This document shows positions 55,178-59,268 of a stretch of DNA of 64,000 nt, piece by piece. This DNA comes from an uncultured Acidimicrobiia bacterium (GTDB lineage Bacteria; Acidobacteriota; Terriglobia; Versatilivoradales; Versatilivoraceae), in NCBI GenBank assembly GCA_963786955.1, contig CAWBAT010000004.1, positions 384,001 to 448,000 of the forward strand. Reading direction: 5' to 3'. Each line of letters begins with the position of its first letter. Within the stretch, counting starts at the first letter, position 1. Under the pieces are notes generated by a model. It ran no database searches and was not told where the DNA came from. It saw nothing but the letters and a program-made list of their open reading frames with translations. Made by a program: the position numbers and the translations under genes.

Positions 55178-55454
55178 GCCTTATGGACTTTTGAGTTTAG
55201 GAATGGCTGAGTAAGGGATCACAGCTTTGATATTCGCTTGGCAAACGGCTGCATGAACAATTCTACTGCATCAGAATTGCAGACCTGATTTCCCTACTGC
55301 GCAGTTATTGCCAAACTGTGTTCGTTGAGTTTCACGCGGTTGTGAATCTAATTTCATGCGCTTCATGATAACTTTCATGAGTTTTCATTATGGCCCTGTC
55401 AATAGGCTGGCTCAAGGGATTTCTGCTTGACCGTTGGTCGATGTGTCATTCAGC

Positions 55455-55605
55455 CTAAGGACTACTATTCGTAATTACGGTGAGCCGTCTTTGGATAGGC
55501 GCCGCGTGAGGTTGGAGCTTTGAGAAAGCCCCAAGCCTACAAAATTGTAGGCCGGGTCACCGACCCGGCGTAACGGTCACTGTATTTATGAAAAGCATTA
55601 CTTAG
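55455..55605. repeat. MITE-like element containing GTAG-type REP hairpins (copy B)
   Basis: Shares attcgtaatt, ggataggcgccgcg, gcctacaaa.ttgtaggccggg.caccgacccggcgt and the cttag end with 3975-4109. Confidence 0.75.
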
Positions 55606-55642
55606 TTTCGGGGTGGCGCACCCATTAGAAGGCCTTTGTCAA

Positions 55643-56180
55643 TAGAACAAACTACCCCTTGAGTGCGACGTAGACTTTTTTGCAAAGGCTCCCTTGCCAG
55701 ATTCCTTTCTCGATCTTCAGAGCTAGCGGCTCATCGAGGACCGTACGCTGTCTACCGGCGGCCTTAGCTGGGTCTACGGGCTAAATTCCTTAGCTTTCTC
55801 CAGCCATGATTCGAACTGGAGAAGGCGGAAGGATCCCGGCCGAGTTTTTGAACCACGCACCCAGGGTTTTCTTGCTTGAGGATCGGCTCGTATCGAGTCC
55901 GTCCATGCACCCATCAGGATCAAGGCTATCGAGGACCATTGGCCTCATTAGCCCCTGGCGCCGTGCGGCGCCCCAGAAAATCGTTGGTACCAGACCGTGT
56001 CCAATGGGCGTGACCGGGTCACAGAATCGGTGGTTCTCCAAGCCAACCGGCTTGGACCAGCGCCGGGCAGGCTCGCGGTCTGGGCGTGCTCGAAAACATC
56101 AGCCTATATCGGGACGGGGACTGTGTCCAATCAGACAGCTGGATTTACACCAGCGCCACCCAAGGCTCACAGCCCCCACC
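55643..56180 (-). ncRNA. Putative bridge RNA / seekRNA region of the IS1111-type element
   Basis: Stem-loop at 56116-56176 carries GGGTGGCGC and TGTCTG matching the two halves of the target; scaffold repeated downstream; transcript ends unknown. Confidence 0.8.
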
Positions 56181-56185
56181 CAGCT

Positions 56186-57205
56186 TTAGCTGCTGAACAA
56201 GCGGGTCGGTTCAAACCGCACCTGATCTCGCAGCACATAATAACAGGCCCGCGCCAGCTTGTGAGCCAGGGCCTTAATTGCCAGCGTCCGATTGACGGCG
56301 GCTGTTTTCCGTTCCACAAATCGTCGGGCTGACCCATACGACCGGGCCGCGTGGGTCGCTGCCTCCACAAAGGCCCAGGCCAGATACCGGTTGCCGTTAT
56401 GGCGGTTGTTCTCCCCTTTCTTCTTCTGGTTGCTCAACCGGGTGCTGGCGACACAGCGGCAGTAAGAGGCGTAATCACCGACTTGAGGGAATCGCCCGAT
56501 GTCGCCGGTCTCCAGCCAGATGGTCAGGGCGAGAATTGGTCCCACCCCATAGACACTTTGCAACAACTCAAAGGAGGCTTCCGGCTTGGCCTGGCTCTTG
56601 AGCTGTTTCTCAATGACCGCAATCTGTTTGTCCAGAGCCTGGATCACCAGCAGCGAACTCTCCACCGCCAGCCTCCGTTCCCGGTCGGGAAACAACTCCC
56701 GAACCTCGGCGACACTCAGCTGCCGAATCGGGGTGTCGGGACTGCGCCGTCCCTGGTGGCGACTCAACAGATTGTTGACGTGCAATAACTGACTGGTGCA
56801 TTGCCTCACCAGAAAACTGCGTTGTCGCAACAGATCTCTCAGTGGCCGCTGCCCAGCCGGGTAAATGTAGCCGGTTGGCAAAAGCTTCAGCCGCAGCATC
56901 TCCCCCAGCCAGCGCGCATCTGACTTGTCGTCACTGTACTTGAGCCCCTGGTACTGCTGCATCGCATTCGGGTTGGCCAGCTTCACCGAGTAGCCCGCTT
57001 CCTTCAGTCCATCCACCAACCAGTACCAGTTGTAGGTCGACTCCACGGCCAGCTCCACAATCTGCTCTCGATACGGCTCTAGTTGCTCTAGCACCACCAT
57101 CATCTCATTGGGCAACCGACACCGATGCACCACGATTCCTCCTTCGTCCAGCAGCACCAGATAACTGTTGTTGGCATGCAGATCGATTCCGCCATATAGT
57201 TTCAT
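56186..57205 (-). CDS. IS110-family transposase (bridge recombinase)
   Basis: GIDLH, VEST and SDDKSDA DEDD RuvC-like motifs; GVGPI and SYC...S motifs. Confidence 0.96.
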   Translation of the reverse strand: MKLYGGIDLHANNSYLVLLDEGGIVVHRCRLPNEMMVVLEQLEPYREQIVELAVESTYNWYWLVDGLKEAGYSVKLANPNAMQQYQGLKYSDDKSDARWLGEMLRLKLLPTGYIYPAGQRPLRDLLRQRSFLVRQCTSQLLHVNNLLSRHQGRRSPDTPIRQLSVAEVRELFPDRERRLAVESSLLVIQALDKQIAVIEKQLKSQAKPEASFELLQSVYGVGPILALTIWLETGDIGRFPQVGDYASYCRCVASTRLSNQKKKGENNRHNGNRYLAWAFVEAATHAARSYGSARRFVERKTAAVNRTLAIKALAHKLARACYYVLRDQVRFEPTRLFSS

Positions 57206-57242
57206 CAGAGGTCTCCTTTCGGGATTAAGTTCGGTACTTAAC

Positions 57243-57273
57243 CCTGAGTCTATCCCATTCGGATAGACTCAGG
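57243..57273. other. Perfect 13-bp hairpin in the IS 5' leader
   Basis: cctgagtctatcc-cattc-ggatagactcagg. Confidence 0.7.
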
Positions 57274-57294
57274 AGGCCTTCTAGATGATTATCA

Positions 57295-57399
57295 GACATG
57301 TGGTTTTTGCATGTCTGCGCCAGTCGACAATCGAAAGGCCTGGCCTCAGCGCATGCATTCAATTCGAAGACATGCACACAGCGCATATCTTCACCACCC
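57295..57399. repeat. REPIN-like inverted REP doublet (copy 1; left arm split by the IS, first 10 bp at 55611-55620)
   Basis: Close direct repeat at 59160-59268. Confidence 0.85.
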
Positions 57400-57472
57400 A
57401 GCGAAATCTATGGAGCAACATAATACAGGCCATTCGCTGATGCCGAAGTCTGTTGCCAACTGAACTAGCTGG

Positions 57473-58827
57473 TCAATCCTTGATGGCCTGGTAAGCCAAA
57501 TTCAATGTCTTTGAGGCCAGGTTCAGGCCTCCGGTTGGATGTAGCTGTCCCATAAAGATTGCAATCATGTCTTCTTTGGGGTCGATCACGAACGAAGTAT
57601 AGAAGAATCCCCCCCAATAATAGGCCCCGAGCGAGCCCAATTCGGTCAGATGTCTAGGCTCGCCGTTGACGCCAAAACCAAGCCCATAGCCCATGTCGTC
57701 GAGCTTTCCCTGGACGTGATTTTGCGAGACGAGTTCAACAGACTTCCGGCTCAGCAGGCGTACACCATTCAACTCACCGCCCTTCAGCAGCATCTGGCAA
57801 AACCGGTAATAATCTTCGGCTGTTGAGCACAGCCCCCCCCACCGGAAAAGTAAGTCCGGGGCCCATGGTAGGGATAATCGGAAGAATAGACAAACGCTCC
57901 TTCTTCAACGACCTGTTTCTCGGCAAATGGCTGGAGCCCCTTTGCAGGATAGTAGGTATAGGCGGTTGCCAGCCGTGTTAGTTTCTCTTCCGGCACAAAG
58001 AAACAGGTGTCCTTCATCCCCATTGGTTTAAAGATCCGTTCCCGGAAGAACTGGTCAAGCGTCATCCCTGAAATCACTTCGACCAGGTATCCCAACACAT
58101 CGTCCGAAAGACTGTATTCCCAGGCCTCACCAGGCTGAAAGAGGAGAGGGAGAGAAGCGAGCTTCCTTACCGCATCACCGATGCTCCCTTCCTGCGGGAA
58201 CAGGCCGTGACCAATACTGGCTTCCCGATATCCCTTACCCAGACGATCGTTCCAGTGGTAGGTGAGTCCGGAAGTATGCGTGAGCAGGTGGCGGATCGTG
58301 ATGGGGCGTCTGGCATCTGTCAGGAATCCCGGAGGGGAGGTCTTGTCCTGAGGAAAGGGGGGGTCCAGAACCTTCATATTCTTGAATTCCGGGATAAAGT
58401 TGGAGACGGGATCGTTCAACAGGAAACGTCCTTCCTCGTAGAGCATCATCACGGCCACACTGGTAATAGGCTTGGTCATGGAGCAGATCCGAAAGATCTG
58501 GTCCGTGTGCATGGGCGTCCTGGCCTCCCGGTTCGCCATGCCGAACGCTTTGAAATAGGCAACCTTGCCGTGGCGAGCAACAAGTGTGACGGCGCCAGCG
58601 ATGCGGCTGTCGTCAATGCTTTTCTGGACTACATTGTCGATTCGTTCAAGGCGCTCCGATGAAAGTTCTACATCTTCTGGAGAACCGGCCGATGCGACTG
58701 TTTCAGAATGAAGTGAGGTTGTTTTGGATACAGCCAACTTCTTGGCTGACGATTCGGGGCGGACTACGAGTCCCAGGGAGATTACTAACAGCAGGGAGAA
58801 CGATAATTTCCGAGCGAAATTGTTCAT
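57473..58827 (-). pseudogene. Serine hydrolase (beta-lactamase class C-like), split by a frameshift in a G8 run
   Basis: SMTK, LLTHTSG, WEYS and WGG motifs; G9 at 57833-57840 would restore SGGGGLCSTAEDY and fuse the two ORFs. Confidence 0.85.
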
Positions 58828-59159: not shown

Positions 59160-59268
59160 CGCAGACATGTGCTTCTTACATGCCTGCGTCAGTCGACAAT
59201 CGAAAGGCCTGGCCTCAGCGCGTGAATTCAATTCGAAGACATGCATACAACGCATGTCTTCACCACCC
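59160..59268. repeat. REPIN-like inverted REP doublet (copy 2)
   Basis: gcagacatg...cagtcgacaatcgaaaggcctggcctcagcgc...cgaagacatgca...caccaccc. Confidence 0.85.

Follow-up and report, generated by a model that had tools for sequence, protein, structure and literature searches.

The window analysed here is a stretch of 64,000 nucleotides (nt) of contig CAWBAT010000004.1 from an uncultured Acidimicrobiia bacterium (assembly GCA_963786955.1). On its minus strand lies an insertion sequence (IS) of the IS1111 group, the long non-coding region of which had been interpreted in an earlier note as a candidate array of guide modules that might give one recombinase more than one target or donor specificity. 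The strings on which that note relied are all present on the minus strand, at or near the positions it gave. The body of the element spans 55621-57292 (minus strand; 1672 bp plus one copy of the core TG), and the core TG flanks both ends (57293-57294 and 55619-55620, minus strand). The ends were set by comparison with 46 relatives. In all of these the left end has the form (flank)-YG-ATAATCAT... and the right end the form ...CTAATGGG-YG-(flank), a common pattern that places the element at 55621-57292 with one core TG on each side.

The transposase (recombinase) gene, tnp, occupies 56186-57205 (minus strand) and is identified by its open reading frame (ORF) of 339 amino acids and by matches to the Pfam domains DEDD_Tnp_IS110 (PF01548; E 1.4e-13, 51.4 bits, cut-off 29) and Transposase_20 (PF02371; E 1.5e-13, 51.4 bits, cut-off 21.3). 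It thus combines an N-terminal DEDD (RuvC-like) domain with a C-terminal PF02371 domain, as IS1111-group transposases do. Upstream of tnp 87 nt are non-coding and downstream 567 nt (stop codon at 56186 to core dinucleotide at 55619), which agrees with the IS1111-group layout and with the roughly 565 bp of the earlier note. Furthermore, the element has a subterminal inverted repeat of 10 bp (TAGAAGGCCT / AGGCCTTCTA, 9 bp and 5 bp inside the ends), within the range of 7-17 bp of the group. The inverted repeat and the long downstream non-coding region assign the element to the IS1111 group.

At the left end and in the 5' untranslated region (57206-57292, minus strand), TAGAAGGCCT lies at 57274-57283 and GATAAT at 57288-57293 (including the core G). 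The right end (55619-55642, minus strand) consists of TTGACA (55637-55642), AGGCCTTCTA (55626-55635), ATGGG (55621-55625) and the core TG (55619-55620); TTGAC and CTAATGGGTG are conserved at the right ends of 42 aligned relatives. Joining the two ends in silico creates TTGACA-17 nt-GATAAT, in which TTGACA may be the -35 and GATAAT the -10 element of a putative circle-junction promoter. A junction promoter of this kind has been reported for the IS1111 group (PMC11187229). No circle junction was found among the Logan contigs of sequencing runs that match the element.

Three near-identical copies are present in the genome, one in the window and two head to head, 574 bp apart, on another contig. 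Over the interval that corresponds to 55611-57319 (minus strand), they differ only at bases 12-19 of the left edge and at one base, window position 55836. The window element is an ordinary, recently active IS1111-group copy. Its nearest named relatives on plasmids carry the PGAP label 'ISGsu4 family', on which a literature search returned nothing relevant.

Anatomy of the non-coding region

A scan of one genome per species yielded 538 relatives, and the best 80 of these 538, with transposase identities of 48-70%, were compared. The closest among these 80 are L025 and L021 (63 and 70% amino acid identity), which align with the window element over the full non-coding region up to an identical right end (alignment A1). 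In a sample of 400 other genomes of the same phylum there were no closer members of the window clade; nine of the 400 contain a relative, none with more than 54% identity. The ORFs in the non-coding region are interrupted in alignment A1 by insertions and deletions that are not multiples of three, and an Rfam scan of 55300-57600 at E values up to 10 produced no match to a bridge RNA family, its three matches being at chance level (E 1.1-3.1).

The order of blocks is common to 42 aligned non-coding regions. It starts with unit 1, a variable linker hairpin and unit 2, continues with GGTTTTCTGGGGC, a hairpin, GCCAGGGGC, a variable hairpin, GCCTTGATCCTG-ATGGGTG-AC-TGGTGCG and a further hairpin, and ends with CGACACC ... 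GAAAAC..GGGYGCG, a variable A-rich part, TTGAC, the inverted repeat and CTAATGGGTG. The boundaries of these modules, their conservation and the covariation of guides with DNA, described below, are direct observations.

Covariance models were built for unit 1 (R1, from 37 sequences) and unit 2 (R2, from 38 sequences), and both were searched over 83 sources, R1 at E<1e-3. R1 has 79 matches in 76 of the 83 sources, with one match in 73 and two in three; the window element and the two other copies have one each. Strong R1 matches are absent from L032, L050, L079, L080, L083, L098 and L099, of which at least L050 and L098 are cut short. R2 matches exactly once in 75 sources and twice in none; the sources without a strong match are L053 (module lost), L032, L050, L057 (cut off), L079, L080, L095 and L098 (weak). 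The window scores 59.2 bits with R1 and 61.8 bits with R2. Since nearly all sources have a single R1 and a single R2 match, the two loops of the window represent the family norm and not an expansion, and counting unit-1 matches per homologue, as the earlier note had suggested, yields no array. We consider it probable that the region is one long IS1111-type bridge/seek RNA, standard for its family, rather than a set of alternative guides.

The non-coding region measures 412-492 nt in most relatives versus 567 nt in the window. The distal stretch (55643-55855, minus strand) is about 100-130 nt longer than in most relatives, and this surplus, which follows unit 4, is common only to L025 and L021. 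It contains a hairpin at 55794-55824 (CTTCTCCAG, a 12-nt loop and CTGGAGAAAG), in which 4 of 11 pairs are kept through double changes (three sequences, with the changes in L025). Two individual relatives show rearranged modules. In L068 (3523-5278) units 1 and 2 are about 1.6 kb apart, and the linker seems to hold an insertion. L053 (3512-4116), from a complete Methylomicrobium genome, has lost unit 2 and kept unit 1 and the donor domain; as this genome holds one full copy and many right-end fragments, L053 does not demonstrate that unit 2 is dispensable.

Unit 1 and its target site

Unit 1 (56112-56183, minus strand) is delimited by the R1 model, by its fold and by guides that match the flanks of the element. 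It sits directly after the tnp stop codon and reads outer stem, GAGCC, TTGGGTGGCG, GCTGG-loop-CCAGC, TGTCTG, ATTGGACAC, outer stem. Its 5' guide GGGTGGCG (56154-56161) is the reverse complement of the right flank CGCCACCC in 8/8 positions and its 3' guide TGTCTG (56132-56137) equals the left flank plus core, TGTC-TG, in 6/6 positions. The 3' guide is followed by AT (56130-56131), the dinucleotide with which the left end starts, and this identity holds in all aligned elements. The claim that unit 1 matches a real site therefore holds, with both guides fitting the flanks of all three copies. Unit 1 folds with -35.4 kcal/mol (z -3.43; 0/200 shuffles as good), and 12 of the 14 pairs of its outer stem show compensatory changes in relatives.

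Guides and flanks also correspond across the family. Among 41 elements, the 3' guide has on average 4.05 matches to the left flank versus 2.49 after permutation, and the 5' guide 4.88 matches to the right flank versus 3.89 (0/5000 permutations as good in either case), counts that, like all permutation counts given here, overstate independence as the elements share kinship. Individual guide switches point in the same direction. L071 and L085 match their unusual right flanks in 9/9 positions, the right flank and the 5' guide change together in L021, and the variants with a CG core (L054, L060, L071 and L085) have CG in the guide. Unit 1 shows the features of the target-binding loop of bridge/seek RNAs, and it is the target-binding loop of this element.

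The left target half is CATGTC (57295-57300), which forms part of a hairpin of the repetitive extragenic palindromic (REP) type at 57293-57319 (minus strand; CGCAGACATG, loop, CATGTC, core TG). The three copies agree in the right target half, CGCCACCC (55611-55618, minus strand), and differ in the flank beyond it. REP-type hairpins of the form CAGACATG-N9-CATGTCTG occur 17 times in the genome, three times with an IS copy. The bases of the hairpin loop are those that vary among the three copies, and hence the hairpin belongs to the target. Each of the three copies reads CATGTC-TG-[IS]-TG-CGCCACCC, that is, insertion is sequence-specific and leaves a common core and no longer duplication; in relatives with CG the core co-varies on both sides. 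Genomic hairpins with the correct right half read ...CATG-TG on the left, and the occupied sites in the genome are only those that fit both unit-1 guides.

Several features of the surrounding DNA touch on the target site. An unoccupied 91% paralogue of the left flank, including the REP hairpin (57293-57399), lies 1.9 kb away at 59162-59268; its left half is correct, and its right side, CGTGGAAT, does not fit the unit-1 guide. The right junction (55608-55625) is nearly palindromic (GGGTG-CGC-CACCC), and relatives with the flank ACCCC read GGGTGACCC, which indicates, for the whole family, a likeness between the right target half and the reverse complement of the right end. Five bases beyond the right target half a repeat of about 106 bp begins (55500-55605), of which 38 other copies with 81-95% identity exist in the genome. 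It contains a terminator-like hairpin at 55549-55566, and its sole Rfam match is at chance level. A 15-base string consisting of ATGGGTG plus flank is found 18 bases from the hairpin that carries copy C (G000 contig C3, about 300866-300883). In L114, the second copy of the L093 element, a 23-base right-end fragment immediately follows the full copy.

Unit 2 and the donor domain

Unit 2 (55984-56088, minus strand) is a second loop on the unit-1 scaffold, with the outer stem CCAGACCG/CGGTCTGG and the constant parts GAGCC ... ATTGGACA. The earlier note was right that unit 2 repeats the constant parts of unit 1; two inner hairpins come in addition. R1 and R2 weakly match each other's module, demonstrating that the two units have a common scaffold. 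The fold of unit 2 has a z of -1.91 (10/200 shuffles as good), and compensatory changes are seen in 8 of the 11 consensus pairs of its outer stem. At its guide positions the window has GGCG versus the flank CGCC and TC-TG versus GTC-TG. Many elements keep the unit-2 consensus GGATC-TG regardless of their flank, and at least nine lineages shift toward their own flank. These guide positions are weak copies of the unit-1 target and do not encode a second specificity. A self-occupied loop, in which the unit-2 5' guide pairs with the stretch before TTGGACA, was considered and rejected (longest helix 4.03 versus 3.88 after permutation, 185/1000, with some extractions off register). L078 has a partial tandem repeat that begins inside unit 2.

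Unit 2 adjoins the donor domain via the conserved GGTACCAA, the linker toward unit 1 is variable, and unit 2 stays single where unit 1 is duplicated. Given its place next to the donor domain and its single copy, unit 2 is most likely the platform of a second recombinase dimer on the donor side.

Units 3 and 4 had been counted as two further guide units. Their strings are present (AGCCTTGATCCTGATGGGTGCATGG at 55903-55927 in unit 3, AGCCGATCCT...CCTGGGTGCGTGG at 55853-55888 in unit 4). They are not separate units but the two strands of one multi-helix domain (55856-55982, minus strand), which is defined by its fold, a closing helix and a string from the right end. The closing helix pairs GATTTTC (55976-55982) with GAAAAC (55866-55871). 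The minimum-energy fold of this stretch is a four-branch multiloop (z -3.04; 0/200 shuffles as good). RNAalifold recovers only 13 pairs in the stretch, the closing helix being established by a separate test. It is kept in 36 relatives, with a mean longest helix of 6.1 versus 4.85 in shuffles (maximum 5.33), and relatives show the double changes GG/CC, GA/TC and AATTTC/GAAATT. Unit 4 also contains a conserved TGGGTGCG (55856-55863), which matches the right junction over 8 nt in the window. GGGYGCR is kept in relatives with an ACCCC flank, and we thus take this match to be a coincidence. The same applies, probably, to the repeat of GGTCCTCGAT to which the earlier note had drawn attention. Both occurrences are there (55928-55937 and 55733-55742). 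Of the 20 genomic occurrences of this 10-mer, however, 14 lie elsewhere than in the three IS copies, and alignment A1 shows that the two closest relatives have not retained its second copy.

The donor domain carries ATGGGTG (55908-55914, minus strand), followed by CA at 55906-55907. The earlier note had matched TGGGTG to the donor side of the junction, and indeed the right end of the element reads ...CTAATGGG-TG. Among all 7-mers of the joined ends, ATGGGTG is the sole string that recurs in the 42 non-coding regions. A scan of 90 loci found the motif in 72, 48 of which also allow the true right end to be read together with its flank. The first five bases of the donor string equal the right end in 48/48 loci, including three with ATGAG. 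The dinucleotide that follows agrees with the start of the right flank in 44 of the 48 (AC in 39, and CC, CA, CG, GC and TC once each, the last five being all the fully different flanks); partial agreement is seen in the window, L021 and L025 (CA versus CG) and in L029. By analogy with the handshake dinucleotides described for IS621 (PMC13626964), the donor-string dinucleotide appears to behave like a handshake guide; like the AT of unit 1, it adjoins a guide and matches the partner DNA that strand exchange would join. A donor-binding loop of the IS621 type, a simple internal loop that guides both donor halves, was not found; the right-end string alone is present, in a multi-branch domain. Donor-binding nucleotides have been predicted in a multi-loop in many IS1111 orthologues (PMC11208160).

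The identity of the internal string with the right end might also be read in terms of DNA, with ATGGGTG acting as a pseudo right end within the element and proteins binding to units 1 and 2. Solo right-end fragments near copies in several genomes would fit such an arrangement, and ISPpu9 is reported to make different circles via alternative end boxes (PMC12288879). However, compensatory changes maintain the pairing of the closing helix and of the unit 1 and unit 2 stems, which points to RNA structure. The dinucleotide behind the internal string varies with the flank at the true right end, which is not expected of a pseudo-end, and the homologous regions are RNA in characterised IS1111 members. 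We regard a DNA-site function as very improbable.

The array of the earlier note, with units 1-4 as separate modules that provide one recombinase with more than one target or donor, draws on the common scaffold and the different variable segments of units 1 and 2. Several guide-bearing modules do exist, but each is single and there is one target class. The window has one R1 and one R2 match, as have nearly all relatives, units 3 and 4 form one domain, one target is common to all three copies, and the unit-2 guide positions resemble the unit-1 target. In the genome, the site derived from unit 2 has 0 exact matches and, in a looser form, 10 matches, none of them occupied. The pattern GCCCGGC..GGGCGTG, for which the earlier note had advised a search, occurs 2-3 times and never beside an IS copy. 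As neither an insertion nor a genomic site fits the unit-2 target, a multi-specificity array is not supported, and we deem it highly unlikely for this element. Of the outcomes that the earlier note itself had named as fatal to its proposal, the lack of a second target class is what we found, whereas a unit 2 that is unconserved or the plain donor loop is not.

A further point in favour of arrays comes from three relatives. In L082 (1142-1295), L093 (3523-3701) and L075 (1015-1202) the unit-1-type target loop is present twice in tandem, with guides that differ between the two loops, ahead of one unit 2 and one donor domain, suggesting that the family can evolve extra target loops. As judged from their guides, these elements would be the nearest natural counterpart of a multi-target bridge RNA. 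The two loops of L082 differ in the core that they specify, CG in one and TG in the other; neither loop's predicted site was found in its genome, which at 1.2 Mb is incomplete, so that this gives no evidence either way. L093 has two copies, both in a site that fits the first loop, and hence provides no test of dual targeting. A literature search returned nothing on two or multiple target-binding loops or on tandem seekRNAs; the supplementary figures published with PMC11187229 and PMC11208160 may already show a second loop or multi-loop for other IS1111 members.

Proposed mechanism and comparison with known systems

A mechanism for the bridge/seek RNA can be proposed as follows. Excision would join the ends and thereby create the promoter TTGACA-17-GATAAT, from which the recombinase gene and then the RNA would be transcribed; the RNA may subsequently be processed and bound by the protein. 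In unit 1, the right target half (CGCCACCC) would be bound through its top strand by the 5' guide, and the left half together with the core (TGTC-TG) through its bottom strand by the 3' guide; the AT next to the 3' guide matches the start of the left end. The multi-branch domain of units 3 and 4 would present ATGGGTG (right end plus core) and two handshake bases as the donor-side guide. Unit 2 would be an old duplicate of the unit-1 scaffold that has kept a weak complementarity to the flanks and probably serves as the platform of a second recombinase dimer. In an integrated copy, a promoter-like site at 56237-56265 (minus strand; CTCACA, 17 nt and TATTAT with an upstream TG), which lies inside the end of tnp about 50 nt before the stop codon, could drive the guide RNA, to judge from its motifs.

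Some observations weigh against this reading, in addition to the kinship of the elements compared. On the donor side, a guide for the left end is not evident, as the earlier note had remarked. No left-end 7-mer of either strand recurs in the 42 non-coding regions, and scans with 5- and 6-mers found only TGATT(A), which is located in unit 1 and unchanged where the left end of relatives differs. Moreover, the handshake pair of the window clade is half matched (CA versus the flank CG), in the first base only. For unit 2, a role as donor loop was tried and rejected because no 7-mer of the circle junction recurs in unit 2 in the 42 non-coding regions, and the donor-platform role is argued solely from its position and scaffold. 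As to transcription, contigs from three RNA libraries span the end of tnp together with units 1-2, and the distal part is covered by one. These contigs are 90-95% similar to the window. Coming from relatives, and possibly from carried-over DNA, they are a weak hint of co-transcription only. Contig ends at 55970 fall into the variable hairpin where the relatives diverge and, like the stretches without cover, are uninformative on transcript ends. Finally, a short seekRNA of 82 nt alone sufficed for transposition of ISEc11 (PMC11187229), so that units 2-4 may be accessory.

The guide positions of unit 2 also speak against a mere platform. Among the 41 elements, the 3' guide has 3.05 matches to the element's own left flank versus 2.32 after permutation (0/5000), and the 5' guide slightly exceeds permutation against the right flank (4.15 versus 3.73; 2/5000). 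This tracking of the element's own flanks might mean that unit 2 functions as a second loop of the target type and keeps hold of the resident copy's flanks, with unit 1 binding a new target and the multi-helix domain the right end, so that three sites are bridged in excision or direct transfer. The lineages in which the 3' guide leaves GGATC toward the own left flank include L047 (8/8), L093 (7/7), L094 (7/7) and L067 (6/7), and two elements, L047 and L065, have a better fit to the flank in unit 2 than in unit 1. Excision of IS1111 elements is described as requiring correct target flanks on both sides (PMC11187229), and for an IS110 element an RNA with a target loop only is described as cooperating with the full bridge RNA in direct transfer (bioRxiv 10.1101/2025.10.25.684509). 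On the other hand, the consensus unit-2 guide persists in many elements whose flanks have diverged (for example L022, L026 and L038), the window matches in only 4+4 bases, and concerted evolution with unit 1 or common ancestry could produce the correlation. We consider such a flank-holding loop improbable. We likewise hold it to be unlikely that unit 2 works as a flank-holder within an RNA that forms a three-site bridge for excision or direct transfer in cis and whose scaffold can be duplicated again for extra specificities.

With one long bridge/seek RNA as the preferred reading, an attractive array interpretation is corrected, the repeats being parts of a single RNA. The comparison shows how a long IS1111-type bridge RNA is built in a subfamily without a described member in the literature searched. 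Besides the target loop, there is a conserved paralogue of that loop, which follows the target and not the donor, and a multi-helix donor domain, the guide of which carries a dinucleotide that tracks the flank. The location of donor recognition, the role of the second loop and the natural tandem target loops are leads for the engineering of bridge recombinases. A literature search on IS1111 and cryo-electron microscopy found no IS1111 structure.

The element resembles the seekRNA elements ISEc11, ISPa11, ISKpn4 and ISPst6 (Siddiquee et al., 2024; PMC11187229), as far as that source describes them, in the location of the RNA downstream of tnp, the subterminal inverted repeats and the junction promoter. 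ISEc11-type elements likewise have a transposase of about 339 amino acids and insert site-specifically without duplication, often into REP or other hairpins. The seekRNAs of the IS1111 group are described in the same source as beginning just past the tnp stop codon, as one stem-loop with the top-strand match 5' of the bottom-strand match, and the order of unit 1 agrees. Short (82-96 nt) and long (148-172 nt) forms are stated to co-purify with the transposase. In contrast to ISEc11, with its roughly 270 bp of non-coding sequence and these short and long RNAs, the element described here has 567 nt, a conserved second loop and a donor domain of about 130 nt. ISEc11-type transposases did not turn up among the 775 plasmid records that match the window protein, as judged from the 10 most frequent organism names in these records, which include no Escherichia or Klebsiella; this suggests a subfamily different from the ISEc11 type.

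With the bridge RNA of IS621 (Durrant et al., 2024; Hiraizumi et al., 2024, 2026) it shares two similar loops on one RNA, guides for both strands in each loop, a core dinucleotide common to donor and target, and handshake dinucleotides. Unlike in IS621, however, the RNA lies downstream of the gene and not upstream, the guide order is reversed, the donor guide lies in a multi-branch domain and covers the right end only, and the second scaffold loop is target-like and not donor-like. The predicted bridge RNAs of the IS1111-group elements ISPa11, ISAzs32 and ISCARN28 (Durrant et al.) are similar in that, according to the text and figure legends, to which the comparison is confined, the RNA lies in the right end and the donor nucleotides in a multi-loop. 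CazIS110-1 of the IS110 group (Sun et al., 2025 preprint), with its target-loop-only RNA that acts alongside the full bridge RNA, provides a precedent for two target-type loops in one transposition pathway. There the loops reside on separate RNAs, whereas in the window element both would be linked on one transcript.

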